From: Gemmatimonadota bacterium | GTDB lineage: Bacteria > Gemmatimonadota > Gemmatimonadetes > Gemmatimonadales > Gemmatimonadaceae | DNA length: 51,873 nt | Reading direction: 5' to 3' | NCBI GenBank assembly: GCA_003136975.1 | Contig: PLEG01000388.1 | Location: 507 to 52,379 of the forward strand | Shown: positions 1,069 to 35,625 of the stretch, piece after piece | Numbering within the stretch: position 1 is the stretch's first letter | Layout of the letters: every line of letters begins with the position of its first letter | The notes under the pieces: model-generated | The model's database searches: none | The model's input: the letters and a program-made list of their open reading frames with translations, nothing else | What the model was told of the DNA's origin: nothing | Program-made: the position numbers and the translations under genes

Positions 1069-1080
1069 CCGCGGGTGCAT
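1069..1080 (+). repeat. 12-mer start-proximal motif copy (CCGCGGGTGCAT, 1 mismatch to GCGCNGGTGCAT)
   Basis: Intergenic, 37 nt upstream of ATG 1118. Confidence 0.7.
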
Positions 1081-1117
1081 GTCGAACTATCCCTTCCATA
1101 CTTGCACTTGATCTCCA

Positions 1118-1900
1118 ATGCCCAAGATCCCAAAGCCATCACCAGCGCTTGAACATCAACTCGCTCCGCATCTTCTCGAGAAATCGATCAGCGTACTGGT
1201 TGTTGGGTGCGGTGGAACAGGGACTGCGATCGCGTCGGGTCTCATCCATTTACACAAGAGCCTACTCGCATACGGTCACCCGCATGGACTTCAAGTAACG
1301 TTGGCAGATGGGGATACGATTTCTCCGACCAACGTAGTGCGCCAACCATTCAGCGAATCAGAGATTGGACTTTATAAGTCTGAAGTCCTTGCCTCTAGGT
1401 ACAATCTGTTTTGGGGCGTCGAGTGGGAAGCTGTAACACGGCATCTGTCGAAGGGCGACAATATCTCGGCCGACATTGTGATCGGATGCGTCGATACGCG
1501 GCGCAGCCGACGCCTGATTCAGCAAGCAACCTCGAAGCACAGCGACACCACGTATTGGCTCGACCTGGGCAACAACGCAGCATCCGGTCAGTTCGTTCTC
1601 GGCCAGCCCTTAAATGCCCGGACGAAGGATATGGCTTGCCGCCTGCCGACCGTCGCGGAGTTGTACCCGGAAACCGTGGATGCCAAGCGAGATAAGGGCG
1701 ATACTCTCCCCTCGTGTAGCTCGCTGGAGGCTTTAGAGCGTCAGGAGCCGTTCGTCAACCAGACGCTCGCATTCAGCGCCCTTGCACTACTCGCCCGATT
1801 GTTCAGGTACGGTCGGATTTCGTACCATGTTGCTCTGATTGACTTTGCTGCAGGAGCAACGGGATACCGCTCAATTCCGAGCACTCAGGAGGCTGCATGA
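1118..1900 (+). CDS. ThiF/MoeB/E1-like adenylyltransferase (PRTRC ThiF-family)
   Basis: 260 aa. It has the N-terminal nucleotide loop VLVVGCGGTGTAIASGL, followed by DGDTISPTNVVRQ and IGCVDTRRSR segments typical of ThiF/E1 enzymes. Confidence 0.85.
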   Translation: MPKIPKPSPALEHQLAPHLLEKSISVLVVGCGGTGTAIASGLIHLHKSLLAYGHPHGLQVTLADGDTISPTNVVRQPFSESEIGLYKSEVLASRYNLFWGVEWEAVTRHLSKGDNISADIVIGCVDTRRSRRLIQQATSKHSDTTYWLDLGNNAASGQFVLGQPLNARTKDMACRLPTVAELYPETVDAKRDKGDTLPSCSSLEALERQEPFVNQTLAFSALALLARLFRYGRISYHVALIDFAAGATGYRSIPSTQEAA

Positions 1901-2115
1901 ATCCGTTCTACACTTACGTTCGCGAGAGTGGTGAAACAGTGGATTTCACCAGGACGCACGATGGGGTTGCCGTCACGATTGATGGTGACGAGTCTCGTGT
2001 GATTCCGGTACGCCAAGATGCGAACGTCGAACGTCGCTCGATGGACGTTGCAATCGCGTACGAGGTCTCGGACCGGGAGTCCTACCAGAAGGTCATCGCA
2101 AGCAACGGGTATTGA
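1897..2115 (+). CDS. small hypothetical protein translationally coupled to the E1-like gene
   Basis: 72 aa. Its ATG overlaps the E1 stop (ATGA). Strand-rich composition, ends SNGY (no GG). No family recognised. Confidence 0.45.
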   Translation: MNPFYTYVRESGETVDFTRTHDGVAVTIDGDESRVIPVRQDANVERRSMDVAIAYEVSDRESYQKVIASNGY

Positions 2116-2178
2116 TCGCGCTGTAGTAAGAGGACCATTCTGGGGCCGTCTTTAATGTCGGCCGTTCGTGTTGAGTGC

Positions 2179-2190
2179 GCGCGGGTGCAT
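2179..2190 (+). repeat. 12-mer start-proximal motif copy (GCGCGGGTGCAT)
   Basis: Intergenic, 31 nt upstream of ATG 2222. Confidence 0.75.
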
Positions 2191-2221
2191 AGCAATACGA
2201 ACCCTTTCCCAGGAGGTTGGT

Positions 2222-2518
2222 ATGCGTTTGCTGTCCTCTCATGGCGTTGTGCTCGCTGCTGTAGCTGCTATTTGCGTCACGGCAGTTCATCCCGACTCTG
2301 ACGGGCCTGCTACGCCAGTCACTCACCAGGCGGGATCTCTGAATCTCCCGCTCGCGGCCCCGAGATATTCGCTCCCGATCTTCAACGATCGGGACTCGAC
2401 ACGACCCCCGACACCCAAGCGAATCAATCGGCCTCGCACGAGGGTAACGCCGGCGAGAGCGACCAGGATCCGGAGAGCTCCGGCCTATGGAGACCGGTCA
2501 GCACGCGCGTTCCAGTAA
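2222..2518 (+). CDS. small secreted/exported hypothetical protein
   Basis: AGGAGG at 2211-2216 precedes ATG 2222. N-terminal signal-like segment LLSSHGVVLAAVAAICVTAV, then a Pro/Arg-rich tail. The ORF-track start at 2168 lies upstream of the RBS. Confidence 0.45.
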   Translation: MRLLSSHGVVLAAVAAICVTAVHPDSDGPATPVTHQAGSLNLPLAAPRYSLPIFNDRDSTRPPTPKRINRPRTRVTPARATRIRRAPAYGDRSARAFQ

Positions 2519-2612
2519 TTGTCGCCAGGGGTTTCGAGGTGGCGCGGGCTCATATCCCACGCGCCGCCTCGAGCGTGCTTCTCAGAACGTCCCTCAAGGG
2601 AGAGTCCGAGCA

Positions 2613-2936
2613 ATGCCAATCAATCCGTTCATTTCGGTGACAGTTCTGGTCTTTATTCCGTTGCTCGCTCTTGCGACATGCGGGAGCGTGGTGGTGTGCA
2701 TGAAGGCCGTCGCTGGTCGTGTATGGGATTCGGCTGCATTCGCGGGATTCTGCTCGGCATTTCTCCTTTCCCTCACCTTTGCTACCGCGGTCCAATGCAA
2801 GGTCGCCTACGAGGAGCAAGCGCCGCACATAGCTCCGATATCGGAGACGAGTGCCGCCAGTCTCGCCAAACGACCGATGATCATTGCGTTCGCGATCTGC
2901 AACGAACAGGGATTTAGCTGTCGTTCTGGAGAGTAA
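2613..2936 (+). CDS. small integral membrane protein, hypothetical
   Basis: From ATG 2613 there are hydrophobic helices ISVTVLVFIPLLALATCGSVVVC and AAFAGFCSAFLLSLTFATAV. The start is uncertain (ORF opens at 2487). Confidence 0.4.
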   Translation: MPINPFISVTVLVFIPLLALATCGSVVVCMKAVAGRVWDSAAFAGFCSAFLLSLTFATAVQCKVAYEEQAPHIAPISETSAASLAKRPMIIAFAICNEQGFSCRSGE

Positions 2937-3039
2937 TGAGCAACCGTAGCAAAAACGGGCAGGGCGGTCGGTGATTGTGGAGACTTCCATTGCACCAATG
3001 GTACGCCAATGCCCGAACAAATAGACATTCGGCACCCTC

Positions 3040-3051
3040 GCGCGGGTGCAT
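3040..3051 (+). repeat. 12-mer start-proximal motif copy (GCGCGGGTGCAT)
   Basis: Intergenic, 60 nt upstream of ATG 3112. Confidence 0.75.
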
Positions 3052-3111
3052 TACCACGCATCACTGATTGCCGAACGTCGGCATGACTCACTCTGTTTGA
3101 GGGCTTCACCA

Positions 3112-4347
3112 ATGGCTACCGCAACCGCTTCCGCGTCGTCAACCGTTACACTCACCAAGTCGGCGCTGCTCGCTGGCCTTTCGCGCGTTGCTGGCGCGAT
3201 TGTCAGCAAGACTACACTTCCTGTGCTGACCAACGTTCTTCTCGCTCCAGGCGAGAACGGTATGCTTCGCCTCGTCGCAAGTGATCTTGACGTAACCGTG
3301 CAGACGGTCGTCAACGCGTCGATCTCCGGCGACGGGAAGGGCGTTACTCTCCCAGGCAAGAAGTTCTCCGAGTTCGTAAAAGAGTGCGCCGACGCACCGA
3401 TAACGATCATGGTTCAGGGTGACACGCGCGCGACGGTCAAGGCTGGCGCTGCACGGATGAAGTTGACCGGCATTGCCGCCGATGAATTTCCGGACGTTGC
3501 TGGACAGATCGCTGAGGCTGTTGACCTGTTCACGATTCCGGCTGGTACGCTCATGGCGCTCGCCAAGCTAGTTGCGTCATGCGTCAGTACAGAGGAGAGC
3601 CGCCCGATTCTGAACGGTGTTCTGTTCGAGATTGGCAAGGCGGAAGGCTCGGGTGCCGACGCCAAGCGCACCGTTCGTATGGTCGCGACAAATGGGCATC
3701 GTCTGGGCGTCTCGGAAACAACGCTCACCGGGGATCAGGCTGGTGCGGTTAACCCTGATGCGGTTGAGCTGATTCTGACCTCTAAGGTTCTCGGTTTGGT
3801 GGCGGCTGTGTTCACGGGTGACGAGTCCGTGGCCATCGCAACCACGCCGGACAAGCATGCGATCGTTATCAAGGGCGCTACCACAACGCTCTCCGCTCGG
3901 ATCATCGAAGGACCGTATCCGAACTACCGTCAGGTATTGCCGGAAGGCTTCTCGGTCGTTGTCGTGGCTGACCGCCCGGCCATCATGCAGACAGTCAAGC
4001 GGGTGAACGTCATCGCTTCGGATCAGACGCACCGCGTGGCCTTCCGTGTCGCTGGCGCCAACGCAGAGGCAAGCGTTTGCATCAGTGCGGAAACTCCGGA
4101 TATGGGCGAGGCCGAGGATTCAACACCGATTCGTATCGAGTCGGGTGCCGTCGAGGGCGAGGATGGGTTTCGCATCGGATTCAACGCCGCTTACCTGCTG
4201 GACCTGCTCAAACTCACGCCGGGCGAGGAGGTTCGTATCTCGCTCCTTTCTCCCGAGCGAGCGACACGAATCGAGCCGGTCTACGGTGCGGAGAAGCCGG
4301 ACGTCACGAGCTTCCACGTTCTGATGCCATTGCGTCTGATGGATTAG
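3112..4347 (+). CDS. dnaN: DNA polymerase III beta subunit (sliding clamp)
   Basis: ~411 aa from ATG 3112. Hallmark beta-clamp segments are present: KTTLPVLTNVLL, SRPILNGVLF, VATNGHRL, IEGPYPNYRQVLP and C-terminal VLMPLRL. Confidence 0.85.
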   Translation: MATATASASSTVTLTKSALLAGLSRVAGAIVSKTTLPVLTNVLLAPGENGMLRLVASDLDVTVQTVVNASISGDGKGVTLPGKKFSEFVKECADAPITIMVQGDTRATVKAGAARMKLTGIAADEFPDVAGQIAEAVDLFTIPAGTLMALAKLVASCVSTEESRPILNGVLFEIGKAEGSGADAKRTVRMVATNGHRLGVSETTLTGDQAGAVNPDAVELILTSKVLGLVAAVFTGDESVAIATTPDKHAIVIKGATTTLSARIIEGPYPNYRQVLPEGFSVVVVADRPAIMQTVKRVNVIASDQTHRVAFRVAGANAEASVCISAETPDMGEAEDSTPIRIESGAVEGEDGFRIGFNAAYLLDLLKLTPGEEVRISLLSPERATRIEPVYGAEKPDVTSFHVLMPLRLMD

Positions 4348-4368: not shown

Positions 4369-4410
4369 GAGAGCACGTTGCCGGCGTTATTGCGCGGGTG
4401 GCGTGCTCTC
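4369..4410 (+). terminator. hairpin downstream of dnaN (GAGAGCACG / CGTGCTCTC, 24-nt loop)
   Basis: Perfect 9-bp inverted repeat at 4369-4377 and 4402-4410. No T-tract follows. It is immediately followed by a 12-mer motif copy. Confidence 0.3.
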
Positions 4411-4422
4411 GCGTTGGTGCAT
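4411..4422 (+). repeat. 12-mer start-proximal motif copy (GCGTTGGTGCAT, 1 mismatch)
   Basis: Intergenic, 80 nt upstream of ATG 4503, directly after the hairpin at 4369-4410. Confidence 0.6.
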
Positions 4423-4502: not shown

Positions 4503-5333
4503 ATGCCTCGCTTTGTAGCTGGCGACCTCTGGAGCGCGTGGCCGTCGACTGGATTGCTCCTCGTCACGACGAATTCCATTGTTCGTCCTTCTGGCGCGCT
4601 AATCATGGGCGCCGGCGTTGCGCGCGACGCGCGCGATCGGTTCCCCGGCTTGGACGTGGCGCTCGGTAAGGCGATACGGCAACAGGGCTGCGTCGGCGGT
4701 CACTACGGCATCATGGTAAGTCCCAAGTGGCCCGAGAGGCGCATCGGTGCTTTCCAGACGAAGATCCGGCCGGGAGATAAATCGAGTCTCGAACTAATTC
4801 AGTTCGCATCGGATGCCCTGGCAGCGTGGTGTCTGGATCATCCCGCGATTCGTGTCGATCTTCCTTTCCCAGGCATTGGGTACGGTCATCTTAGACCCGA
4901 TGATGTACGCCCGATTCTCGATGCTACACTTCCGGATACCGTGAATGTATGGGCGCGGGAGGTTGATCTGCTCGATGGGGCGAGCTCGGTAGATAACTCA
5001 CAATGGCGGTTCTTCCGCTGGCGCGACATCGCCGCTGCAAAAGAGTGGGCTGATGCCGGGAACGTGGCGGTCCACGACACAGGGCGACCGTACCGTCGTT
5101 GGACGAATACAGCACACCTCATGGCGAAAGACGATGCCACGCTTCGCGCCGCAGCTCGTCGGATCGGCGTTCAACTTCGCTGGATACAGACTGATTCTCG
5201 ACGAACCCACTACGACATTTTCGGCGGACCGCTCGATCGCGCTCTCTCATTGGTGGACAATCGCAACGAGGAAGTGTGGCGCAAGCGATCGGCGCAGTCC
5301 GCGGGTGCATCGGAACTCACGGTAAAGGAGTGA
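4503..5333 (+). CDS. Macro-domain (ADP-ribose binding/hydrolase)-like N-terminus fused to a DUF4031-like C-terminus
   Basis: 276 aa. The N-terminus GDLW..LLLVTTNS..GALIMGAGVARDARDRFPGL resembles phage-type macro domains. The C-terminus AHLMAKDDATLRAAARRIGVQLRWIQ..THYDIFGGPLDRAL matches the DUF4031 H-L-x-AD...HYD pattern. Confidence 0.6.
   Translation: MPRFVAGDLWSAWPSTGLLLVTTNSIVRPSGALIMGAGVARDARDRFPGLDVALGKAIRQQGCVGGHYGIMVSPKWPERRIGAFQTKIRPGDKSSLELIQFASDALAAWCLDHPAIRVDLPFPGIGYGHLRPDDVRPILDATLPDTVNVWAREVDLLDGASSVDNSQWRFFRWRDIAAAKEWADAGNVAVHDTGRPYRRWTNTAHLMAKDDATLRAAARRIGVQLRWIQTDSRRTHYDIFGGPLDRALSLVDNRNEEVWRKRSAQSAGASELTVKE
5299..5310 (+). repeat. 12-mer start-proximal motif copy (CCGCGGGTGCAT, 1 mismatch)
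   Basis: Lies in the last codons of CDS 4503-5333, 27 nt upstream of ATG 5338. Confidence 0.7.
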
Positions 5334-5337: not shown

Positions 5338-6264
5338 ATGAAGAACACTATGCGTCCAAAGGGCCAGTCTGCTCAACTCACCTTGCTCACACCACAGTAT
5401 GACGAGATCGTGCTGACCGATGATGTGCGGAAGGCGTACGGTAGCTATTTCACGCCTGGTTACGTCGCCAGTGCGCTCTACGAACGCACGTTCCCTGATC
5501 TTGGAGAGCGCGATTGTGTCCTGGATCCCACTGCTGGCCTGGGGCATCTACTCGGGGCAGTGCCAAAGCAGGTTGGCGCAATTGGTGTTGAGATTCAGCC
5601 GGAGCTCGCAGCGCGTGCGCGCCAGGCAACCGGGAGACCGGTTGTCACTGGCGATATTCGCACCTACGATATCGAGCGCGCATGTGACGAACTGTGCGAT
5701 GGTCGACGAGTCACTGCTTGCTTCGCGAACCCGCCGTTCTCGATCGGGATTATTGAGGCGATTCTTGAGCGCGCTTACCACCTTTTGCCACAGGGCGGGC
5801 GCTTCGCCAGCATCCTGCCTGTTCATTTCTTCCATATCGCCTCGCGCACAGTACGGCACAACCGCCAATGGAGTATCGCTTGCGAGCTGCTACCGCGAGA
5901 TGTGTTTCCGCGACTGGCGCAATCAATTTGCTGGGCGGTGTTCGAGCGGGATACAAAGCGCGTTTTGGGCGGGTTTGCACTGTATGAAGACATCGCCGCT
6001 GCGCGGGCGCTCGCTGATCGTTACCGGCGCACGTTGCGGGATGTTGCAGTCGAGCCTTGGCGTGTGGTTGTCCTCGACGCGCTTCGCGACCTCGGCGGCC
6101 AGGCGCATCTCTCCGACGTGTACCGAGTGGTCGAATCCAAGCGATCGAACGCTGGACGGTTCTATCGTGAGAAGGTGCGTCAGCAACTCCAGCGGTACGC
6201 GGTCCGGATCGGGAAGGGAGAATATCGTTTGCCCGATCAACCCAATGCAGCATACGCTGCCTAA
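5338..6264 (+). CDS. N6-adenine DNA methyltransferase (gamma-type motif order), orphan
   Basis: 308 aa. It has GSYFTP, the AdoMet motif VLDPTAGLGHLL and the catalytic motif FANPPFS. AAGGAG RBS. No cognate nuclease is adjacent. Confidence 0.8.
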   Translation: MKNTMRPKGQSAQLTLLTPQYDEIVLTDDVRKAYGSYFTPGYVASALYERTFPDLGERDCVLDPTAGLGHLLGAVPKQVGAIGVEIQPELAARARQATGRPVVTGDIRTYDIERACDELCDGRRVTACFANPPFSIGIIEAILERAYHLLPQGGRFASILPVHFFHIASRTVRHNRQWSIACELLPRDVFPRLAQSICWAVFERDTKRVLGGFALYEDIAAARALADRYRRTLRDVAVEPWRVVVLDALRDLGGQAHLSDVYRVVESKRSNAGRFYREKVRQQLQRYAVRIGKGEYRLPDQPNAAYAA

Positions 6265-7361: not shown

Positions 7362-7373
7362 GCGCTGGTGCAT
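7362..7373 (+). repeat. 12-mer start-proximal motif copy (GCGCTGGTGCAT)
   Basis: 27 nt upstream of ATG 7401. Confidence 0.7.
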
Positions 7374-13675: not shown

Positions 13676-13687
13676 GCGCGGGTGCAT
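13676..13687 (+). repeat. 12-mer start-proximal motif copy (GCGCGGGTGCAT)
   Basis: Intergenic, 44 nt upstream of ATG 13732. Confidence 0.75.
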
Positions 13688-16124: not shown

Positions 16125-16377
16125 CACCAGGGCTCGCAGTCTCGTTGCTGTTGAGTTCGATGGCCTCGTGGAAGTACATCTACCACCGATCAGCGCTGGT
16201 GCATATGCAACTCTGTGTGGGATGGACGGCGACGACGAATGGAACGGACAGAAGCCGGCAGTACTACCCCATAATCCCAAAGTGACGTGCGCTCACTGCA
16301 TTGGCATCTGGCGCGCCGCGCGGGCGTATGGACCGAAGTATATCGATACCCAGCACCTGGAGAAGGATCATGAGTGA
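16114..16377 (+). CDS. hypothetical small protein (start uncertain)
   Basis: The ORF is open from 16006. GTG 16114 overlaps the previous stop. An alternative ATG at 16222 lies 17 nt after a 12-mer motif copy. Contains VTCAHCIGIW. Confidence 0.35.
   Translation: MRNNTRARSLVAVEFDGLVEVHLPPISAGAYATLCGMDGDDEWNGQKPAVLPHNPKVTCAHCIGIWRAARAYGPKYIDTQHLEKDHE
16193..16204 (+). repeat. 12-mer motif copy (GCGCTGGTGCAT)
   Basis: Inside ORF 16006-16377, 17 nt before in-frame ATG 16222. Confidence 0.55.
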
Positions 16378-19375: not shown

Positions 19376-19560
19376 CGGGAGAATCGAGCCCGGCGGACGA
19401 CCGCGCAGGTGCAAATGGGCTTATGACCAGATCACTCAACCACGTGCTCCCAGAGCCAAAACATCACGAGGCCGACATGCATCCGCAGTCGAATAGCGCT
19501 TAGCGCACCGCGGGCGGCGGCGCCATCCGGTGTAGTCGCTCGCACTTCCCAGGAGATCCT

Positions 19561-21509: not shown

Positions 21510-21628
21510 AGTGATGTAAATGCAGGGGTTGGGCGTGTTGTACGGCGCAGGTGCAGTGGGCAGTATCCAATAGGACGCCCTTGTTTCGACGGCGTTCACC
21601 GACTGCTTCCCGCTTGAGGATTGTAGCA

Positions 21629-24574: not shown

Positions 24575-24586
24575 GCGCGGGTGCAT
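24575..24586 (+). repeat. 12-mer start-proximal motif copy (GCGCGGGTGCAT)
   Basis: Only 9 nt upstream of ATG 24596. Locally it forms the loop of CGCGG-GTGCAT-CCGCG. Confidence 0.75.
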
Positions 24587-26323: not shown

Positions 26324-27265
26324 CTACGCCTGCGTTGGTCTCTCTGCCTGCTCGATAATCATGCGAGTAGCACCAGTTACGGGATCTCGCGATACTCTGC
26401 AATGCATTCCGGATTCGATTGTCAGTTCAACGCCTGGTGCAAGATTGATCTTCGCACCGTTGATCTCGAGCACGTACGCCGGTATAGTCTCGGGGTTCGC
26501 GATAACTGACTGCAGTGGCGACCGTCTTTGTTCAAGCGAGACTGTTTCGATGGCCGTGATGAACCGGTATTGCGCTGTTTGGCCAGGTCGTTGGTTTCGC
26601 TGAAGAATACCGGCATCTACACAGGACTTGATCGCCTTCGTCACGCTACCAGACTCGAAGGCAAGTGGGTTAATGAATGCGTTCGCTGCAAGCGGAATCC
26701 ATTCACGATCTACAGCATCCGCTGCGAGTGCAGCGAGTACGAACCATACACCAGCTTTCCGTTCTCGTGATCCTCGCGTCGTCATTGGAATCACAGTGTC
26801 GAGCCGTGGAGATATCTCAGCGATGTCCAGCAGGTGCGTGAATATTTCGCGATCGGTGTCTTGGGGAGCGAGTTGCGAGAGAGATTCCCCCCCGAAAGTC
26901 ATTCGATCGGTTTCGTCACTCCAAAGGACCCCCGTCGCGCGGAGCGCGTCAACGGCACTTCGTGTTGCTTCGATCTTGAGACCGAGGATATCCAGCACAT
27001 CGGCACCGAGTGGATCGAATGCCAGTTCAGTAATTGGCCGGCGTCGAAACTCGAGGTGGCGGGGGAGTCGATTCGACAAAACGAATGCCAAGGCAATTGC
27101 GTGGCGAGCCACAACTTCAGAAGTCCGCCTCTCATCCACCAAAGCCCCGATCCGCTCCGCGAGAATCCCATACTGCAGGAGAGATCGAGGGTGGAAACCT
27201 CCCGCCTCAACTGAGCCGCCAGGGAGCGGCAGAATGTGGACAAGTCGCTGGGAAGGAATAGTCAT
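26324..27265 (-). CDS. hypothetical protein, possibly winged-helix DNA-binding; divergent from the rep gene
   Basis: The only - strand gene in the first 37 kb. Its composition is protein-like, whereas the + strand antisense ORF is Ser/Arg-rich. Start is ATG 27265 or GTG 27295. Upstream on the - strand there is TTGACA(27305-27300)-17 nt-GACATT(27282-27277). Confidence 0.5.
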   Translation of the reverse strand: MTIPSQRLVHILPLPGGSVEAGGFHPRSLLQYGILAERIGALVDERRTSEVVARHAIALAFVLSNRLPRHLEFRRRPITELAFDPLGADVLDILGLKIEATRSAVDALRATGVLWSDETDRMTFGGESLSQLAPQDTDREIFTHLLDIAEISPRLDTVIPMTTRGSRERKAGVWFVLAALAADAVDREWIPLAANAFINPLAFESGSVTKAIKSCVDAGILQRNQRPGQTAQYRFITAIETVSLEQRRSPLQSVIANPETIPAYVLEINGAKINLAPGVELTIESGMHCRVSRDPVTGATRMIIEQAERPTQA

Positions 27266-27295
27266 GGGACAGGGCGAATGTCGAGCCCAGAGCAC

Positions 27296-28038
27296 TGTGT
27301 GTCAATACTCAGGTAGAGTCACGGTACAGGGAGTGGGTCGATCCATCAAAGGCTTGTTGAATCTTCCAGTCCAAATTTCGGCTGATGAGAGCTTCACAGA
27401 AACTGAGTTAACTCATTTATTTCGACCCTCCCACAAGCTGAGATGCTGGCGAAGGGAAGTTGGGGTACAGGGGCTGGGACAGGTTGAGAGCGAAATTGCA
27501 GGATGTACCTAGGTAGCCCCACGGGTAACCCCATGGTTCCACCGCCGATGGTATCAGTTAAAGGGGCTGGTTGGTCATATGTGCTTATTTAGCATGGACT
27601 TACAGCCTTTTCGATAGAATTGGAGTTCTCGCTAGTGATGGCCACACCCACTGTACTCTGACTATACCTTGATCAATTCATGCCAATTGAAGGCTTCGGG
27701 ACTGGATTGAACCGAGCTACCAGCCTGTACCCTGACCCTACCAAATTTGACGGAGATGATTCCCTATCCATCGTTCAAAGCTACTTTGCTATGCTCATTT
27801 TGCCCTTGAGATAGCAAAATCAACGAGACAATTACGTAGTTAGTAGCAATGTTATCCACGTAGAGGCGTATCCATGTTGGTATGTATGCTTTTTCCCGTA
27901 TCTAAAAACACTCCACATCAACACATCAGTAATCCACACTTCGAAGTACCTTTGAGACCGAATGAGTATCGTCCTACGAACAGCCTTTGGTGCGGGATTG
28001 TGCAATACGCGTACGATACACCAGTTTTGTAGAGTCGC
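27296..28038. other. candidate replication origin / divergent control region
   Basis: 743-bp non-coding stretch, visibly lower in G+C. DnaA-box-like 9-mers: TTATCCACG 27852-27860 and TAATCCACA 27930-27938. The octamer GGTACAGG occurs three times (27323-27330 +, 27464-27471 +, 27724-27731 -). AGGGGCTGG occurs twice (27469-27477, 27562-27570). Inverted repeat TTTGCTAT/ATAGCAAA (27785-27792 / 27811-27818). AT-rich tract around 27887-27911. Confidence 0.5.
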
Positions 28039-29847
28039 ATGACTCTCTCCCGTCGCTCACTCGCCCACTACGAATTCTCGCCGCCTCTATCACGTGCGGA
28101 CGAGTTGTTGCTGCATCACTACGATGTTGATCATCTACCCGGGCATTATCCGATCGTGCAGCTCGTGCTTCCGATCGCATTGCTTAATCCTCGGGCGGGG
28201 TCTCGGCGGGATGCGACAGGGAGACTTAACCGTGCTGTTTGTGAGCGATACCACGTATTCCCCCTCGCGGATGGCTCTCACGCACTCGCGTGTATCAAAG
28301 GGGATCCACAACTTGGGCTGCCGAGGGGCCAGGACCCTGAAGTTGCATTTGCTGTCACCGCGTTAGTTCTCGCGCGCCGGCGTAACGGCGGAACTGGTGC
28401 AGATTTGTCCATCCGCGACATTCTCGCTGTACTTGGCGCCGCCGATGACACAGGAGGCAAGCGATACACTCGAGTGCGTGCCGCTCTTGATCGATACGCG
28501 AAAACCACGATCGAACTGATCCAGGTTCCTTACGGTGTTGATCATGACGATCTGCTTGCAACAGTCCAGTCTGGAGAAGACGCCGTAACCGCTGTTGTTC
28601 GACTTGCACGAGCGGTTGGGCGTGACGTAGCTCCCAACTCGCCTCGAATCCCTATGCCTCGGGAGCGACCAAGAACAGTAACACGGCGAGACCATAGGCG
28701 ACCGACATCGCAGCCGGGCATCATGCGAGAAGTCACGGGCGTTTTCAAGCATGGCACGTACACCCCGATTGATGCTCATGACGGGACGGGAGTCTATCTC
28801 CGTAACGTCAACCTCGATGACTCATGGGTTGAGCAAGTCGATACGGGGCGCATCGGCTGGCTCGATTTGGCACTGTACCTGGATCTCCCAACTCCGCTAT
28901 CACAAGCGTTGTACAGAGTCGCAGTGGCCGAGGCGTTCACGGATCAGCAGGGGCGTGTTGAATGGTCCCTCGATTATATCCGATCAGCTGTCGGCGCCGA
29001 ACTGCACATGAAGCCGAAGCAGTTCTTGTCAGCCGTTCGTGTAGCGATGGAAGAACTCCGAACTCGCGCTGTCATTCAGGATTTTGGTGACGTCATCATA
29101 GGTCGAGGCAAGTACAGGGTTTGGTACAAACCTGGCTCTCCGCTTGAGGTGTCACGGCTACTCAGTGGCGTTACACCACTCGATCCGCAGGATCACCGCG
29201 CGAAGATGTTATTGCTGAATCACTTTGGCATTTATGGTGATGAAGCTCGCGCGCTCATTGTGCAGAGTCCGACACATGTTCATCGCGCTCTTCTGTTCGT
29301 CATTTACGAGGAGCAGACGCGAGGAACGCGTGAAGAGATGGTCAAGCCAATAGGCCACGCTGGGAAGTGGATTACCAAGGCTGTTACCGAAGCATGGGAT
29401 TTCAGTTCGTACCGGGGTTTCATGAATTGGGTTGGACGACGTGAAGCAGCGCTCGATGCAAAGGCCACCGGTGCAGTCGCACCTCCACCGCAAACCCTAT
29501 TCTTGCCGCGTGCCACTGAGATCTCAGTCGTGCCAGTTACTGCTCCCAAGATTGGAGATGGACCGGAAGCGTCGCGGGCAAGGCGGATCTTCACAGAAGT
29601 TCTTGAGCGCGCTACGCTGCTGTCGCAACCTGTGAAACTCACCGTCAGCTCAATGTTCGCTGCCTGGGGGATAGAAGGTGACAGCATCGTGGTTGTTGGA
29701 GAGCCGGGGGAATCAGACTTCTATCGTGGCCGGCTCGCAGAGGCGACCACCGCCACGGAACTGGGCGCGTTGACAGCCGAGCTCACCGACGGCCAATGCA
29801 CACGCATCTCGGCCGTTCGGTTCGATCCCGCGATACACGGCTTGTAA
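28039..29847 (+). CDS. plasmid replication initiator, RPA (replication initiator protein A)-like
   Basis: 602 aa. GLPRGQDPEVAFAVTALV .. DLSIRDILAVLG .. GGKRYTRVRAALDRYAKTTIEL fits the recalled PF10134 pattern. It sits next to the origin-like region. Confidence 0.55.
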   Translation: MTLSRRSLAHYEFSPPLSRADELLLHHYDVDHLPGHYPIVQLVLPIALLNPRAGSRRDATGRLNRAVCERYHVFPLADGSHALACIKGDPQLGLPRGQDPEVAFAVTALVLARRRNGGTGADLSIRDILAVLGAADDTGGKRYTRVRAALDRYAKTTIELIQVPYGVDHDDLLATVQSGEDAVTAVVRLARAVGRDVAPNSPRIPMPRERPRTVTRRDHRRPTSQPGIMREVTGVFKHGTYTPIDAHDGTGVYLRNVNLDDSWVEQVDTGRIGWLDLALYLDLPTPLSQALYRVAVAEAFTDQQGRVEWSLDYIRSAVGAELHMKPKQFLSAVRVAMEELRTRAVIQDFGDVIIGRGKYRVWYKPGSPLEVSRLLSGVTPLDPQDHRAKMLLLNHFGIYGDEARALIVQSPTHVHRALLFVIYEEQTRGTREEMVKPIGHAGKWITKAVTEAWDFSSYRGFMNWVGRREAALDAKATGAVAPPPQTLFLPRATEISVVPVTAPKIGDGPEASRARRIFTEVLERATLLSQPVKLTVSSMFAAWGIEGDSIVVVGEPGESDFYRGRLAEATTATELGALTAELTDGQCTRISAVRFDPAIHGL

Positions 29848-30049
29848 GCGGCGCCAAAGCCGATACTTGTAGGTTACAGGCCGCAACGTATTGGATAGAG
29901 AAGTACCACAAATCGTAGGATCGACAACTCGTTTTCACTCGCGGCAATCCCAGCAGGTGTAAGCCAGCCTGGGGCAGGGCCGTCTCTTGTATAGGTACCT
30001 GATTTCCACTGCACGCTATCGGTGTGCACCAGTCTGAGAGTTGTTTCCA

Positions 30050-31843
30050 ATGGCGAGATCACCATCGCGTCGAACGTCAAAGTTTTCCTTATCTCCTGAG
30101 GAACGCGAGCAGCGTCTCAACGAGGCGTCAAATCGTATGGAGGAAGCAGTTAAGTCTTTGACGACGAGTGATCAATTCCGCGCGGCGCTACGTGTGTCGG
30201 CTTCGTTCCCAGAGTATTCGTTCGGCAACACGTTGATGATCTGGACTCAGAACCCGGAAGCAAGCATGGTGTGCGGGTTCGAAGCTTGGAAGAAACTTGG
30301 ACGGCACGTGAAGAAGGGTGGAAAAGCAATCCGCATCTTTGTTCCGATGACATTCCGAAATAAGCTTGTAGCCGAGAGCTCTGCTTCGGGATCGGACGAA
30401 ACGCCAGGTGAGGTGAGTAGTGAGTCGAGGAGAGTAGCATTCCGTCTCGGCAACGTGTTTGATATTTCGTCGACGGAAGGGGAACCCATCCTTGAACTCC
30501 CGCGGCCCAAGATTCTCGAGGGAGACAGTCCTCTCATCCGGGCGGCGATAGCGGGCCTCTGCGATTTCAACGCCACTCGCGGAGTACCGGTGTCGTTCAC
30601 CGACATCGCCGGCATGTCAAAGGATGTCAATGGGTTCTGGCACCCGATAAAGCGTCGGATTGAAGTGCGTGAATCCTTGTCTCCCCTGCAGCGCCTAAAA
30701 ACGCTCGCACATGAAACGGCTCACGCCCGACTCCATCTCGTGCCGCTGCACTCTGACCAAGAGCGAAGAACAGCGGAGCTCGAAGCTGAAGCATCCTCGT
30801 ACCTTGTGCTCGACTCCCTTGGTATTGATGGTGCTGAGGAATACTCGTTTCCATACCTAGCTGGTTACTCAACAACTCCAGAAAGCATATTGGGAGTTGG
30901 AGAACGGGCCCGTAAAGCAGCCGCGGTCATCATCGACTCGGCTTATTGCGCGATCAATCAGCAGCTCGGGACAGAATTCGTACGCGGAGTACCGCTCGAC
31001 GCGTTGGAGGCACGAGCAGATGCGGCGCGTGAGTCGAAAGCTGCGAGGGTGGCAGGGAAGAACTCACGCGACCATTATCGGCGTGTGTCTGATGCTGGAG
31101 AGACCGCGTCAGTGCAAGCCAAGGCAACCGGCCTCTTTATCGCGATAGAGGGAGTTGATGGGATAGGCAAATCAACCGTCCTACCAATCCTTGCAGAGAA
31201 GATTGAGAAAGTGCTGGGTCGAAAAGTTGTCTGCGTCCGGGAACCTGGTGGTACGCCGATCGGAGATGAAATCCGTACGGCACTCAAAGCCGGCGTAGGC
31301 TCGAGCGACCCCCATCACCAGCTTGCGATGTTCTGTACCGCACGTAAGGCGCTCATCGAGCAGGTCGTAAGGCCCGAGATTCAGGCCGGTAGCGTCGTGA
31401 TCGCTGATCGGCATAGTCTGAGTACGTACATCTACCAGGGCGGTTCTGGGGTGTCAGAGCGGCAGATTGCCGATGCTAATGCGGCTGCTGTGGGTGGAAC
31501 ACGTCCGGACGCTACCGTGGTCCTGTGGGCGACGCGCGAGGATCTCATCGCCCGCCGGCTCGCGAGGAACGCCGCGGCCGATGCCTTTGACGAGGTTACT
31601 GAGGATGGAACGATCAGAGCGCTCGAGCGGCAGGCTCGGTATGTAGCTCTAGCGAATCGAACACCTGGCGCCATGACAGTCGCAGTTCAGGCTACCCCGG
31701 AGGCGACGGCATCCGCAGTGGTAGAGCGATTGGCTCACGTCCTCGCTATAGCCCGTGGTGAGGCAGCTCCACAAGTTGAGACCAAGCCTCAATCGGTTCA
31801 GGAGGAAGACTCGGAGGAGGTCATCGCAGCCGCTGTTGCATAA
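30050..31843 (+). CDS. ArdC-like antirestriction protein (ssDNA-binding N-domain + HExxH metalloprotease) fused to thymidylate kinase
   Basis: N-domain EYSFGNTLMIWTQNP..GFEAWKKLGRHVKKGGKAIRIFVP. HETAH at nt 30710-30724. C-terminal Tmk: FIAIEGVDGIGKST (P-loop from nt 31151), REPGGTPIGDEIR, ADRHSLSTYIYQG, PDATVVL. The ORF opens at TTG 30041. Confidence 0.7.
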   Translation: MARSPSRRTSKFSLSPEEREQRLNEASNRMEEAVKSLTTSDQFRAALRVSASFPEYSFGNTLMIWTQNPEASMVCGFEAWKKLGRHVKKGGKAIRIFVPMTFRNKLVAESSASGSDETPGEVSSESRRVAFRLGNVFDISSTEGEPILELPRPKILEGDSPLIRAAIAGLCDFNATRGVPVSFTDIAGMSKDVNGFWHPIKRRIEVRESLSPLQRLKTLAHETAHARLHLVPLHSDQERRTAELEAEASSYLVLDSLGIDGAEEYSFPYLAGYSTTPESILGVGERARKAAAVIIDSAYCAINQQLGTEFVRGVPLDALEARADAARESKAARVAGKNSRDHYRRVSDAGETASVQAKATGLFIAIEGVDGIGKSTVLPILAEKIEKVLGRKVVCVREPGGTPIGDEIRTALKAGVGSSDPHHQLAMFCTARKALIEQVVRPEIQAGSVVIADRHSLSTYIYQGGSGVSERQIADANAAAVGGTRPDATVVLWATREDLIARRLARNAAADAFDEVTEDGTIRALERQARYVALANRTPGAMTVAVQATPEATASAVVERLAHVLAIARGEAAPQVETKPQSVQEEDSEEVIAAAVA

Positions 31844-31881: not shown

Positions 31882-31893
31882 GCGCAGGTGCAT
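31882..31893 (+). repeat. 12-mer start-proximal motif copy (GCGCAGGTGCAT)
   Basis: 45 nt upstream of ATG 31939. Confidence 0.7.
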
Positions 31894-31938: not shown

Positions 31939-33213
31939 ATGTCCCGCTTAACTAGTCCTGCCCCCTCGATCTTTCAGTCGTCCAACTTCGCTTCCGCCGC
32001 CGGCGACGTACATCCCATGTACGGGCTCATTCGACGTCACGGGCGACTCCCGGCAAAGGATTTTGTTGCCTTGGTGGGCACCTTCCGTACTGGCGTGAGC
32101 GATGACGTGATATCGGAGCAATTGCTCGCGACTTACGTTCCGCTCCTCTCGGCGATGGTCCAGAGGAAAAGTCCGAAGGGTGACGCTGGTCTTCAGTTCC
32201 GGGAAGGAGCCGTTCCAGCCGCGATTGCGGCCTTCTTCGAGGCGATCGGGGATTCGAGTATCCCGCTCGCGCCCCGTGCGCTTCTCAAGGAAATCAATTC
32301 ACGTGTAACGAGGGCACTCGAGCAGGAATTACTCTCGGCTGAGCACGCCCTCGTTGTCTCCGCTCAATCCGCCTGGCGAGCTGGGAACGTCATTCGAACC
32401 GCTGGCGCTGTGTCCAACGCCGACGTTGACTGGCTCACACGGGATGAGGTCTACGCGATACTCGGCGATTCAATCCGCGTTGAGAGTATTCATCTGGTCC
32501 AGAATTCCAAGTTCGCCCTCGCTCTTGGATCAAGCTCTGGGAGCAGACGAGCAGAATTGGGCGAAGAGATGGTTACTGCTGAATCGATTCCAAACTTACG
32601 GGAGGAGACAACAGGTGCCGCGGCAGTAGCTGCCGAACGACTCGCGCGTGCCTTGGCGACCTTGCCGGCGGCGGATGCCCGCATGCTTGTGGACGCCCAT
32701 GGTCTCTTCGGTCGGAAACCAATTCTCGCAGCCGACGTTGCCGCGGAGCTCGATGTTCACCCGTCGACTTACAGGCGTATACTAAACCGTGCTGAGGCAC
32801 TCCTCCGGAGTGAGCTGATAGCTCAAGATTCGCCTGACCTGGGAGGGGTTGATGGTACCGGTGGTGCTCCGGTTCGAGGCGCTTGGTGCTCGGCGAACAG
32901 CTCACTTATGCGCAAAGGCTACCGAACTGAGCTTGAGCCAGGGATGGTCCGCTACGCCCGACACGTTGCTGGTGCAGTGCGGTGTTTCGCTGAGCACGAG
33001 GGGTGGAATCCGAAAGAGACTGAAGCAGCGGTTCGGAGGCTCGTTTCCTTCCGTACAGGCCGGACTGACGCATCCGATCACCCGTTGACCCTACAGATTG
33101 TGGACAGCCTGACGACATTTGCGCAGTCCTCGGCCGGTGGCACTGGTCGTTCGGCAGCCGAACCACCATCAGTGGCCACAGTAGAATCATCATTCGCAGA
33201 GTCCGCTGCGTAA
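31939..33213 (+). CDS. divergent sigma-70-family-like protein
   Basis: GGAGAA RBS precedes ATG 31939. Region-2-like LLATYVPLLSAMVQRK..FREGAVPAAIAAF and region-4-like HTH ILAADVAAELDVHPSTYRRILNRAEALLRSEL, with an extra ~140-aa C-terminal tail. Confidence 0.45.
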   Translation: MSRLTSPAPSIFQSSNFASAAGDVHPMYGLIRRHGRLPAKDFVALVGTFRTGVSDDVISEQLLATYVPLLSAMVQRKSPKGDAGLQFREGAVPAAIAAFFEAIGDSSIPLAPRALLKEINSRVTRALEQELLSAEHALVVSAQSAWRAGNVIRTAGAVSNADVDWLTRDEVYAILGDSIRVESIHLVQNSKFALALGSSSGSRRAELGEEMVTAESIPNLREETTGAAAVAAERLARALATLPAADARMLVDAHGLFGRKPILAADVAAELDVHPSTYRRILNRAEALLRSELIAQDSPDLGGVDGTGGAPVRGAWCSANSSLMRKGYRTELEPGMVRYARHVAGAVRCFAEHEGWNPKETEAAVRRLVSFRTGRTDASDHPLTLQIVDSLTTFAQSSAGGTGRSAAEPPSVATVESSFAESAA

Positions 33214-33356
33214 ATGTGATACTGTGGCTACATTTGTCGCAAAATCGCACATTTGGCGCGATTCTGCACAAGTTGGCTGGATTATGTACTACCATTTTCT
33301 GAAAATTCGATTATGAACTGGCGTTTGAGGGTAAGGCAACTGCTGGATGCGCATCG

Positions 33357-33920
33357 TTGACCGCTCCGATGCCAGGAGAGGCAGAGCATCCTCGCCCGCG
33401 ACGCGTGGGTCGGCACGAGCCGTTTACTTCGGCTCTCGAGAAAATTGGGACGAAAAGGAACCCGCTCTGGCAGGTGACGGCCGCCGGGCTGCTCCTGTGC
33501 AGATTCATGGACTCCTGGGCTCTGATGGGGCCGACCTTCATGCGCTGGCCGAGCGAGACTGCGAAGGAAAGACGTCAGGTCGTAGAGGAGGTCGGCGAAC
33601 AGTGGTCGGATCTCCGGGAATCTCTCCTGCTTGCGTTCGATACGCTCGCTCTCAAGGGTGTATCCCCCGAGGCCGAAATCTCCACTGCTACGACACGCGC
33701 GATCTGGTTGAAAGCTGTGTATGCCCTTGCAGACGCAGCGGATTCCTACCAGAAGCACGGGCTACCTGATCGTGCGAGTGACATGTATCAGCTTGTCCTC
33801 GATCGTCTTCCGCCTTCCGAAGGAAAGCGCGCTATCAGAAGATCCCTGGCAGTGGAGGAACTTGCAGAGCGCTGCAGGTCAGCCATTAGCCAACTCGAAG
33901 AGCAAAACGGCGATGTCTAG
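33357..33920 (+). CDS. hypothetical protein
   Basis: 187-aa ORF (TTG start; ATG 33369 possible), preceded by the AT-rich region 33214-33356 with short inverted repeats. Confidence 0.4.
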   Translation: MTAPMPGEAEHPRPRRVGRHEPFTSALEKIGTKRNPLWQVTAAGLLLCRFMDSWALMGPTFMRWPSETAKERRQVVEEVGEQWSDLRESLLLAFDTLALKGVSPEAEISTATTRAIWLKAVYALADAADSYQKHGLPDRASDMYQLVLDRLPPSEGKRAIRRSLAVEELAERCRSAISQLEEQNGDV

Positions 33921-33983
33921 AAAACGCAGCGCTTGTCATGAATTCGCTCTAGGCCGGATCGTGTATTAGCCGTACCTTGGCTG

Positions 33984-34292
33984 ATGGCAAGCAATCACCG
34001 CGGGACCAGTTTGCATTGGAAGCTTGTACAGGGTGCAAACGATCAGCTTGAGCTCGTTCTGATTCCAGATCCGCACATATTGGAAGATCCAGACTCAGTG
34101 AAAGCCATCGAAGTGATACGTGCAATGACACATGAGCGTGCACATGGTTGGCGCGAAATACCTAATGGGCCAACACCGACGCTCCCCTGGCATCCGGATC
34201 TCACGCCAATCGAGCATTCGTGGATGTGGATGAAACTCCTCAAGGCTTACGCGATCCAGCCGAATCTGACGGCGCCCAAAGCGATATCGTAG
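33984..34292 (+). CDS. hypothetical protein
   Basis: 102-aa ORF. No motif recognised. Confidence 0.4.
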   Translation: MASNHRGTSLHWKLVQGANDQLELVLIPDPHILEDPDSVKAIEVIRAMTHERAHGWREIPNGPTPTLPWHPDLTPIEHSWMWMKLLKAYAIQPNLTAPKAIS

Positions 34293-34294
34293 CA

Positions 34295-34639
34295 GTGCAG
34301 CCCTCAAGTGCCGCGGAGCCAACATACGATGCACATCGTCTTTCCGAGCTATTCCGAGCTGCAGGATTGTCCACTGGAGTTTGGCGCGTAGGAGGAACTA
34401 CCGTGCAGAACTCCGCCGAAGCCGTTCGTGTAGCTGCTGGCGCAGCCGGCGTACTCCAACGAATTGCAGTAGTGCTCCGCGAGTACACAGGCGCGTACAG
34501 ATTGCTGTTTGCGCCGACGCGAGAGGAAGCTGTTGCGATTGCCGAGCGCGAGATGAAGAAAGAGATGGGGCTGGTCGGCGTATTCGATCTTGAAGCCCGT
34601 AGGATGTTCTCAGCTCAGGTACGAATCGCCCTTCGTTAG
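34295..34639 (+). CDS. hypothetical protein
   Basis: The ORF opens at 34220. GTG 34295 is 2 nt after the previous stop. Confidence 0.35.
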   Translation: MQPSSAAEPTYDAHRLSELFRAAGLSTGVWRVGGTTVQNSAEAVRVAAGAAGVLQRIAVVLREYTGAYRLLFAPTREEAVAIAEREMKKEMGLVGVFDLEARRMFSAQVRIALR

Positions 34640-34748
34640 AGCAAGATTGCTCACTCCGCTCATCAACCTCAATTCTCAATTCGCGACGGCGATACTTATG
34701 TGACCGAGCAGCTCATGTAAGCGTCGAGTGGAATAGAGCGGAGGGTGG

Positions 34749-35528
34749 ATGGTAAAGCATAAATGGCGGAGCTGCAAAGCGGCACTTTCGAATCCTCGGA
34801 CGAGCAAATTGCGACTCGCAGGCTTGCGCGTGCTGGAACTAGCGCGGGATATGGAGGGTGGCGTGTTCCCGGAGAGTTTGAAGGACGCGGAGGGACGGTA
34901 CGTCGAACTCGATTGCGTAAACTGCGATGCGAAGTTGCAGAATGCGAAGCTATACTGCGGTGACTACTGTCAGCAATTCTCCGGTACGGTTCGTTATGCC
35001 CGGAAAGCCATTGATGAAGGGCGAATCGTCAAGGCCGAAGTCCAAGAGGGCATCGGGCAGCGCCTTTTGATGCTGAGTGGGGGAGGGTACCCGACCGATA
35101 GGCGCGCTCTTACAAAGCAGGAACGCGAGGCGATTCTAATACGCGACCATCGCAAATGCCAGGAGTGTGGTCGTAAGGCAACGGAAGTAGATCACATCCG
35201 AGGAGATTCAAGCGATACTCGCAACCTTCGCGCTTTGTGCAAGAATTGTAATCAAGGCGCTGCTGTTGAGAATGCCAGGATCATCACGCGAGAGGAAGAT
35301 CCAATTGAGTGGGAGCGTATTTTCGAGATGTACGAAGCCATGGCCCAGCGGATCGCCGCACCGCTACCTCTTCGGTTCTGCGACGACCATCTCAATTGGC
35401 GGAAAGCGCAGTATTCCATCCGCGCAGCAAGAAAGGCAATGTTGCGCGAGATCGAGGAGGAGGAGGAGGAAACCGACTTCGTAGACGTTGACGATTACCT
35501 ATACAACGCGATGCAGAAAAACGATTAG
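34749..35528 (+). CDS. HNH endonuclease
   Basis: 259 aa. GGAGGG RBS. Core IRDHRKCQECGRKATEVDHIRGDSSDTRNLRALCKNCNQ, with N-terminal CVNC..CGDYC cysteines. Confidence 0.75.
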   Translation: MVKHKWRSCKAALSNPRTSKLRLAGLRVLELARDMEGGVFPESLKDAEGRYVELDCVNCDAKLQNAKLYCGDYCQQFSGTVRYARKAIDEGRIVKAEVQEGIGQRLLMLSGGGYPTDRRALTKQEREAILIRDHRKCQECGRKATEVDHIRGDSSDTRNLRALCKNCNQGAAVENARIITREEDPIEWERIFEMYEAMAQRIAAPLPLRFCDDHLNWRKAQYSIRAARKAMLREIEEEEEETDFVDVDDYLYNAMQKND

Positions 35529-35613
35529 CCTGAAGGGTCGAGCCAGTTCAGTGCCGATGCTGCTTGGAAGGCCGCGCCGATCAGGGATGTGTTTGCTTGA
35601 GATCCCTCAAGCC

Positions 35614-35625
35614 GCGCTGGTGCAT
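35614..35625 (+). repeat. 12-mer start-proximal motif copy (GCGCTGGTGCAT)
   Basis: 8 nt upstream of ATG 35634, preceded by hairpin AGGGAT/ATCCCT (35583-35588 / 35602-35607). Confidence 0.7.

Follow-up and report, generated by a model that had tools for sequence, protein, structure and literature searches.

Several phages encode sigma factors with promoters of their own (T4 gp55, with the late promoter TATAAATA; SPO1 gp28 and gp33/34; phiEco32 gp36), and T4 late promoters, like extended -10 promoters, are read without a -35 element. Group-3 sigma factors normally use a -35 element as well (TAAA for sigma-28, CTTGAAA for sigma-32). Promoters read by sigma factors of the extracytoplasmic function (ECF) type are bipartite, with a -35 element (AAC-type) and a -10 element (CGT-type) about 16-17 bp apart, and sigma-54 promoters carry GG at -24 and GC at -12, 10 bp apart. 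The KorA/KorB operators of IncP plasmids are palindromes bound by dimeric repressors, which act in either orientation and at a distance. The start-associated sequences (SAS) of cluster K mycobacteriophages keep a short, near-fixed distance to the start codon and take in the ribosome-binding region. For sigma-28 promoters the element (-15)GCCGATAA(-8) has been described; its GC serves as an extended -10 read in the duplex, with A-11 flipped into region 2 of sigma (PMC12784957, citing Koo et al. 2009). The subject of the present analysis is a 12-bp motif, GCGCNGGTGCAT, that recurs in a 51,873-nt stretch of Gemmatimonadota DNA (contig PLEG01000388.1, positions 507 to 52,379; hereafter the window), ahead of genes in a one-directional array carried by a PRTRC-type mobile element of soil Gemmatimonadota. 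The motif is likely to be an element-specific composite extended -10 promoter, most probably read by a divergent sigma factor of 424 amino acids (aa) that the element itself encodes.

Copies of the motif were counted on both strands and compared with dinucleotide shuffles of the window. The exact 12-mer was present eight times (0.10 expected), a number reached in no shuffle. With up to one mismatch allowed, 14 copies were present (2.25 expected; shuffle maximum of 6). The recurrence described in the initial annotation is thus real and stronger than was reported. The 11 copies listed there were all recovered with the same coordinates and sequences, and three more, at 19403, 21545 and 44757, had been overlooked; the statement that none lies beyond 35,625 holds for exact copies and fails for the variant at 44757. 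All 14 copies are on the + strand and none is on the - strand. The enrichment, which had been put forward from an uncomputed expectation, persisted against the shuffled background. The 6.9 kb preceding window position 1 (locus L001) hold four further + strand copies. In a weight-matrix scan of the combined 58.8 kb, 18 + strand sites scored at or above 17 bits, and the top - strand score was 11.1 bits, in agreement with the earlier observation that no full copy occurs on that strand.

All but one of the 14 window copies are located between + strand genes, in gaps that account for approximately 17% of the window. The sole exception (5299) is within the last 35 nt of the preceding gene. Between motif end and start codon lie 8 to 146 nt (20-158 nt when measured from motif start), and the values of 8-80 nt given previously for ten copies were correct. 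No self-complementarity was found in the motif, of the kind that marks KorA/KorB palindromes.

Related elements were reached via homologs of two window proteins, which gave four related element contig sets with proteins 52-73% identical. Loci L006 and L010 belong to the same metagenome-assembled genome (MAG; proteins 67-73% identical). The remaining loci were L012 (clamp 62% identical), L011 (57%) and L007 (sigma-like protein 52% identical). The motif recurs in all related loci, and its copies with at most one mismatch are all on the + strand, bar one coding-region match in L006. Orthologous sites were present ahead of the genes for the beta clamp (L010 1380, L012 3701 and a weaker two-mismatch site at L011 9925), PRTRC ThiF (L012 1888), the RES-domain protein (L010 5247), the Gam-like protein (L010 11000, L011 13241), the Mom-like protein (L006 4757) and the sigma-like protein (L006 2488, L007 2835, L011 18865). 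Sites were also present ahead of PRTRC_E and Prok_Ub (L011 5199 and 5958) and of the gene for the single-stranded DNA-binding protein (SSB; L006 12740). The ortholog of the site at window 5299 (L010 3541) has retained its 39-nt distance. In alignments of the diverged intergenic DNA ahead of orthologous genes, the motif forms a conserved island. The variant GCGCGAGTGCAT (window 44757) is in use at orthologous sites of related elements, and the element-family consensus is about GCGCNRGYGCAY. Gene order and motif positions are kept between relatives with no sign of cassette shuffling. No attC-like inverted repeats were found around the motif, whose flanks are unconserved. The initial annotation had made its proposal depend on conservation of the motif at gene starts in related elements, and this was found ahead of orthologous genes.

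Eighty chromosomal dnaN loci of Gemmatimonadota (1.26 Mb), which were the only loci returned by a genome scan with the clamp alignment, were used as a host control. They contained two exact copies of the motif, a density 97-fold lower than that of the element. Matches to the degenerate family consensus were equally frequent on both strands of the host DNA, whereas those in the element were nearly all on the + strand. The motif was not above chance in the chromosomal flank L009 or in the Gemmatirosa locus L014. A scan of genome contigs with the sigma-like alignment gave no related loci, and neither did metagenome contigs. No relatives of either sigma gene of the window were found in IMG/VR, whose clamps were at most 36% identical and included no member of the element family.

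The anatomy of the motif was examined in an alignment of 22 sites, with positions counted from the motif start. Information content was confined to the 12-mer and to positions 19-21, where a Y-A-T signal follows the motif at a fixed 8-nt gap. Of the 22 sites, 20 have Y at position 19, 16 have A at position 20 (p = 3e-7) and 13 have T at position 21. The flanks had been described as unconserved, which is correct for the upstream side; the downstream signal had been missed. From -45 to -1 before the motif start, every position stayed at or below 0.4 bits, and a -35 element such as accompanies group-3 promoters was not seen in these sites, as had been noted before. The start signal was also present in an independent set of 15 sites from L011, L012 and L007 that had not been used in its discovery: position 20 was a purine in 14 (p = 5e-4) and A in nine.

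Distances to the start codon were collected for 39 sites. The minimum from motif start to start codon was 20, and this exact distance was found four times, at window 35614, its ortholog L006 4757, L011 7058 and L012 1888 (ThiF), which represent three non-orthologous genes. A distance of 21 occurred once (window 24575), followed by 27 and then by values of at least 39. The 8-nt gap before the ATG at window 35614 is kept in its L006 ortholog (4757/4777). A hard lower bound with a pile-up at Y-A is what would be expected if transcription starts at position 20. The transcription start site (TSS) is predicted 9 nt past the last motif base, with Y at -1 and A at +1, and a start at position 20 would place the motif at about -20 to -9. 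Four genes would then have leaderless mRNAs, including that for the Mom-like protein, and a fifth, the methyltransferase gene, would be nearly leaderless with a 1-nt leader. The other predicted 5' untranslated regions are 7-138 nt long, many with a visible Shine-Dalgarno (SD) sequence. By computation, the motif would be an element of the -10 region that is co-oriented with its gene and lies at a fixed distance upstream of the predicted start, as in sigma-70-family promoters in general. A reading of the GGTG within the motif as an SD sequence was rejected, since most copies lie 27-146 nt from starts that carry an SD of their own.

In the proposed mechanism, GCGCNGGTGCAT would form the promoter core, with no -35 element. 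The upstream GCGCNGGTG would be recognised while double-stranded, and the melted -10 region would begin with the 3' CAT, whose A would act like the flipped-out A-11 of sigma-70-family promoters. The extra GCGCNG would stretch the duplex contacts to -20, so that a -35 contact could become dispensable. Host core RNA polymerase carrying the element's 424-aa sigma would read these promoters, and the sigma-like gene, which would itself be under the same promoter, would be subject to positive feedback. At least 14 promoters in the window, and at least 18 when the 6.9 kb upstream are included, would break up the array into numerous short transcription units. What was computed is the enrichment, the bias in strand and position, the conservation, the fixed start signature and the spread of start-codon distances; the A as transcription start, the factor that reads the motif and the contacts between its bases and the sigma regions are inferred.

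The initial annotation had offered a -10-type or TSS-proximal promoter element as one option. This option is supported by the start signature, the pile-up of start codons and the orthologous conservation, and by two further results. Consensus sigma-70 promoters are depleted, with one in the first 20 kb where 6.8 were expected. In addition, the hairpin that follows the clamp gene ends exactly at a motif copy. Its counterpart in L010 (approximately 2705-2747) was computed at -39 kcal/mol (z -4.7), so that the position is conserved in two elements with a different stem sequence. This hairpin (4369-4410) probably marks the 3' end of a transcription unit, followed by re-initiation. A second hairpin had been reported ahead of the copy at 35614; the first of the two is strong (z -6.3), whereas that at approximately 35595-35612 did not stand out from shuffled sequence (z -1.1). 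A search for a second shared motif in the 22 + strand intergenic regions that have no copy gave none above shuffles. As a separate observation, the post-clamp hairpin has no U-tract. It may be a non-canonical terminator or a stabiliser of the mRNA 3' end.

The candidate reader is the product of the gene at 31939-33213. Its family is rare like the motif, with seven relatives among 1.8 billion representative proteins. The initial annotation had called this protein sigma-like, which is weakly supported by profile matches to sigma regions 2-3 and 4. The N-terminal profile of the family matched sigma WhiG (6pfv/6pfj) over regions 2.1-3.1 at E = 0.003, and also sigma-E region 2; sigma factors accounted for seven of its eight matches. 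The entry 6PFV is the structure of RsiG with WhiG, a sigma-28-family member (PMC7005675, PMC13595943). The full-length family profile matched region 4 of SigE, SigA, RpoS and RpoH at E = 0.02 or weaker, and sigma factors dominate the 51 matches listed for it. Pfam Sigma70_r4 or r4_2 matched weakly in four of six family members. All of these sigma matches fall below curated thresholds, and no Pfam or NCBIfam family matched above threshold. A C-terminal extension of approximately 130 aa follows. With moderate confidence, the protein may be taken as a very divergent, group-3-like sigma factor with regions 2, 3 and 4 and a C-terminal extension. The gene is a syntenic core gene after the ArdC-thymidylate-kinase (ArdC-Tmk) fusion, and the motif stands ahead of it in four of four elements with this region available, which suggests positive autoregulation. 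The motif is probably read by this divergent sigma.

The sole unambiguous sigma factor of the window is the ECF protein encoded at 49937-50722 on the - strand (Sigma70_r2 at 8.7e-9, TIGR02937 at 2.5e-14), which the initial annotation had overlooked. The linker that joins its regions 2 and 4 is unusually long. The few distant homologs of this protein are encoded on short contigs, in unrelated contexts without the motif. The ECF sigma is a candidate for an alternative reader or for an upstream regulator. A bipartite ECF-type reading of the motif was rejected, as the motif is a single contiguous 12-mer with no upstream block. A sigma-54 reading with TGCAT as the -12 element was also rejected: there is no conserved GG 10 bp upstream, and positions -4 to -1 are unconserved.

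Several points weigh against a promoter read by the 424-aa protein. The whole case is built on sequence. Equating the A of CAT with A-11 puts the predicted start one base nearer than is canonical, with this A at -10; such a shift falls within the known range of start-site selection. The -10 region is G+C-rich and has no T at the equivalent of -7. A -35 element is usual for group-3 sigmas, yet none is seen here. The sigma assignment of the protein depends on weak profile matches (the E values of 0.003 and 0.02 above). When its family was compared with the element's ECF family in hhalign, only region 4 was aligned, at 7% probability, and the AlphaFold model of the protein was unusable (mean predicted local distance difference test score of 47). 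It is also possible that a polymerase is encoded by the element in the approximately 140 kb of source contig outside the examined DNA.

It is less probable, if not far-fetched, that the same promoter is served by another reader, namely the ECF sigma, an alternative sigma of the host or a polymerase encoded where the element was not seen, with the 424-aa protein merely a regulon member or co-factor. This would suit the weak sigma assignment of that protein. It would also suit the unambiguous assignment of the ECF protein, its long region 2-4 linker and the placement of its gene apart from the array, on the opposite strand and free of the motif, as might be expected of a master regulator. The bipartite form of ECF promoters is at odds with the lack of a conserved -35 block, however, and the ECF homologs occur away from the motif; a host sigma regulon finds no support in the 1.26 Mb of host-phylum DNA, and it is the 424-aa gene that is syntenic core beside ArdC-Tmk and preceded by the motif in every element where the region can be read. 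An operator for a repressor or activator, laid over promoters that are set by weaker signals, is unlikely. The many copies ahead of genes across the mobile element would suit a KorA/KorB-like system, and candidate DNA-binding proteins are encoded (the - strand gene 26324-27295, Xre-like helix-turn-helix (HTH) proteins and ParB-like proteins). The KorA/KorB analogy drawn in the initial annotation nevertheless fails on the form of the site, which is non-palindromic and strictly co-oriented with transcription, whereas dimeric operators work either way. Nor would an operator explain the fixed distance to the Y-A signature and to the leaderless ATGs; no other promoter elements are conserved or detectable nearby, and -20 to -9 is where sigma itself binds.

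A signal acting in RNA, either a site for an endoribonuclease or RNA-binding protein with cleavage 8-9 nt downstream (Y^A) or a translation or stability signal, is quite unlikely. Strand specificity and a 5' untranslated location would fit such a signal equally well, the Y-A at fixed distance could be the cleavage site, and the GGTG inside the motif is SD-like. Against it, no secondary structure or flank is conserved and no Rfam family was matched, most start codons are 27-146 nt away with their own SD, which excludes a ribosome-binding site, and the strong hairpin right before the motif in two elements suggests that transcripts end earlier. Y at -1 and R at +1 is, moreover, the standard initiation preference of bacterial RNA polymerase. 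Most improbable is a polar DNA signal, such as an oriented oligomer of the Chi or KOPS kind, a site for priming on the transferred strand or one for recombination at gene-cassette boundaries. Strict polarity in a one-directional and possibly leading-region array would agree with this, the element encodes Gam-like and SSB proteins, and the GCTGGTG of some copies resembles E. coli Chi (GCTGGTGG). Chi and KOPS words are spread through coding DNA regardless of gene boundaries, however, whereas 13 of the 14 copies here are intergenic and tied to gene starts. Conserved synteny and motif positions speak against cassette shuffling, as do the lack of attC-like inverted repeats and the unconserved flanks. 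There is, finally, a small likelihood that the motif is a strand-specific signal on single-stranded nucleic acid, either on the transferred conjugative strand or in RNA processed into leaderless mRNAs. In its transferred-strand version it would launch immediate expression or priming of leading-region genes for anti-defence and establishment (ArdC, SSB, Gam-like, methyltransferases, PRTRC). Structured single-strand promoters of the Frpo type are known from enterobacterial plasmids, and a single-strand reading, if true, would be a sequence-defined alternative to them.

The features of the window are collected below.

Table. Motif copies, the post-clamp hairpin and sigma genes in the window. Predicted TSS is motif start + 20 (for example, 3040 gives 3060).
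Feature	Coordinates	Strand	Remarks
Motif copy CCGCGGGTGCAT	1069-1080	+	Predicted TSS 1089; ahead of PRTRC ThiF/E1 gene, ATG 1118
Motif copy GCGCGGGTGCAT	2179-2190	+	Predicted TSS ~2199; ahead of small open reading frame (ORF), SD and ATG 2222
Motif copy GCGCGGGTGCAT	3040-3051	+	Top score, 25.7 bits; predicted TSS 3060; ahead of beta-clamp gene, ATG 3112
Hairpin	4369-4410	+	-34 kcal/mol, z -6.3; abuts motif copy 4411
Motif copy GCGTTGGTGCAT	4411-4422	+	Predicted TSS 4431; ahead of macro/DarG-like gene, ATG 4503
Motif copy CCGCGGGTGCAT	5299-5310	+	Predicted TSS 5319; ahead of gene 5338-6264
Motif copy GCGCTGGTGCAT	7362-7373	+	Ahead of RES-domain gene, ATG 7401
Motif copy GCGCGGGTGCAT	13676-13687	+	Predicted TSS 13696; ahead of Gam-like/Sipho_Gp157 gene, ATG 13732
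Motif copy GCGCTGGTGCAT	16193-16204	+	Candidate downstream starts are ATG 16222 and TTG 16301
Motif variant GCGCAGGTGCAA (..GCAA)	19403-19414	+	Intergenic; ahead of ORF 19561 and exonuclease gene 19893
Motif variant GCGCAGGTGCAG (..GCAG)	21545-21556	+	Intergenic; ahead of ribonucleotide reductase gene, SD and ATG 21629
Motif copy GCGCGGGTGCAT	24575-24586	+	DNA methyltransferase ATG 24596 at motif position 21
Motif copy GCGCAGGTGCAT	31882-31893	+	Ahead of sigma-like gene
Sigma-like gene, 424 aa	31939-33213	+	Region 2-3-like and region 4-like parts plus C-terminal extension
Motif copy GCGCTGGTGCAT	35614-35625	+	Mom-like gene ATG 35634 exactly at motif position 20
Motif variant GCGCGAGTGCAT	44757-44768	+	Intergenic; ahead of SSB gene 44871-45506
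ECF-type sigma gene, 261 aa	49937-50722	-	Near element end; no motif copy ahead

Weaker + strand matches with two mismatches (12-13 bits) were seen at 15260, 17488, 38205 and 40316. That at 38205 is in the gap ahead of gene 38260, and that at 40316 would run antisense into the NlpC/P60 gene (40348-40977, - strand). Cumulative GC skew climbs almost monotonically over window positions 1-51873, which agrees with a one-directional array.

In metagenome contigs that are 185-239 kb long, the window makes up the final ~52 kb. Its array includes genes for PRTRC_B/E2 and PRTRC ThiF/E1, a beta clamp, a macro/DarG-like protein, an Xre-like HTH and RES pair, GGACT, an amidoligase, a Gam-like protein, an exonuclease, ribonucleotide reductase and DNA methyltransferases. 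An RPA-like replication initiator, an ArdC-thymidylate-kinase fusion, a Mom-like protein, an HNH protein, SSB, a large serine recombinase and a ddrB-ParB protein are also encoded. The PRTRC_B and ThiF genes matched TIGR03737 (4.7e-48) and TIGR03736 (1e-76), both over the NCBIfam cut-offs. With PRTRC_E and Prok_Ub just upstream of the window and the ddrB-ParB gene at 47383-49044, the clustered set that characterises PRTRC-bearing elements (PRTRC_B, ThiF, PRTRC_E, Prok_Ub and a ParB-related gene) is present. Past the window end (L008 14529-16244, L009 6462-8177), an ISL3 transposase is followed by chromosomal-looking genes, so that the window is taken as the right-hand part of an integrated PRTRC-type element. 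The HAD hydrolase, radical-SAM and nonribosomal peptide synthetase genes beyond the transposase probably belong to the chromosome.

The nearest relatives of the clamp outside the element family are chromosomal DnaN proteins of Gemmatimonadaceae/Gemmatimonadales (39-42% identity), and the closest related element comes from a Gemmatimonadaceae MAG; together these place the host in the phylum Gemmatimonadota. The identities suggest that the element clamp was an old capture from the host phylum. This beta clamp gene (window 3112-4347) is kept in all four related element contig sets. Megablast searches gave no phage match with either half of the window and no plasmid match with the first half (1-25,000). 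A phage identity was rejected: PHROG matches exist, but the gene set is PRTRC, of integrative/conjugative type, and the window has no structural genes. No tRNAs and no Rfam families were found in the window.

Some further features of the array were recorded. The ribonucleotide reductase is split over two overlapping frames, ORF 21551-22312 (all-alpha domain and barrel start) and ORF 22182-24155 (the rest), which could reflect a frameshift, whether or not a programmed one, an error in sequencing or a pseudogene. The fusion of ArdC-N, a metalloprotease-like segment and a thymidylate-kinase-like part was found at window 30041-31843, L006 582-2450 and L011 16947-18791, and is directly upstream of the sigma-like gene in every element with that region available. 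A gene-free gap of 740 nt (27296-28038) separates the - strand gene 26324-27295 from the RPA-like initiator gene (28039-29847). It contains iteron-like repeats GGTACAGGG(R)(S)TGGG, direct at 27323, 27464 and 27559, with inverted repeat partners at 27651-27670 and 27724-27742. The gap could be a replication origin or an operator region. It holds no copy of GCGCNGGTGCAT, so the RPA-like initiator gene would use another promoter.

If the preferred reading, a composite extended -10 promoter served by the 424-aa sigma, is correct, the element would supply a complete sigma-promoter pair for Gemmatimonadota, comprising a 12-bp core, a predicted +1, leaderless genes and a candidate orthogonal sigma. 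This phylum is abundant in soil, and to our knowledge hardly any genetic tools or characterised promoters exist for it; the pair could serve as such a tool. A limited literature search gave no precedent for the motif or for sigma factors of Gemmatimonadota elements. A large PRTRC-type element could in this way express its array of DNA-metabolism and anti-restriction genes without recourse to host promoters, as many short co-regulated units with a likely positive-feedback loop. The strategy of a mobile element that comes with a sigma and a promoter set of its own is already established, and no new principle is involved. The novelty would lie in the sigma family and its consensus, and in the extension to a non-phage element of an essentially unstudied phylum.

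Compared with the known systems, the KorA/KorB operators of IncP share with the motif a short sequence placed about a dozen times ahead of backbone genes; they differ from it in that the motif is asymmetric, co-oriented with transcription and locked to the predicted start. The cluster K SAS resemble it as asymmetric sequences of approximately 13 nt on the coding strand only, closely ahead of a subset of genes in one mobile-element family. This second analogy of the initial annotation did not hold either, as the start-codon distance of the motif varies from 8 to 146 nt while its distance to the predicted TSS is fixed. With the phage sigmas the likeness is in strategy: a divergent element sigma would likewise redirect host core polymerase to a short repeated consensus, for which a -35 element can be dispensable. 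Here, in contrast, the element looks integrated and of PRTRC type, probably conjugative or plasmid-like, the consensus is G+C-rich and the host is a member of Gemmatimonadota. Lacking in each case a defining feature, the motif is placed outside the sigma-28, sigma-32, ECF and sigma-54 promoter classes as well as outside the KorA/KorB operators and the cluster K SAS; from the sigma-28 and sigma-32 classes it is set apart by the missing -35 element and by its different consensus. Relative to group-3 promoters, its block is longer (12 bp, to -20), the -10 hexamer is unconserved in its second half and the predicted start is one base closer. The candidate sigma is extremely divergent with its C-terminal extension of ~130 aa, and the regulon would be that of a mobile element instead of flagellar or heat-shock genes. 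The composite -10 elements of sigma-28/FliA/WhiG and sigma-32 nevertheless have in common with the motif a G+C-containing block directly before the A-T step, at about -15 to -10. An extended -10 contiguous with the core A-T step is present here as GGTGCAT at -15 to -9, GTGCAT here and GCCGAT in sigma-28 promoters share the layout S-N-S-S-A-T, and the N-terminal half of the candidate sigma best matches WhiG of the sigma-28 family. In architecture, the motif is closest to the group-3 composite -10 promoters.

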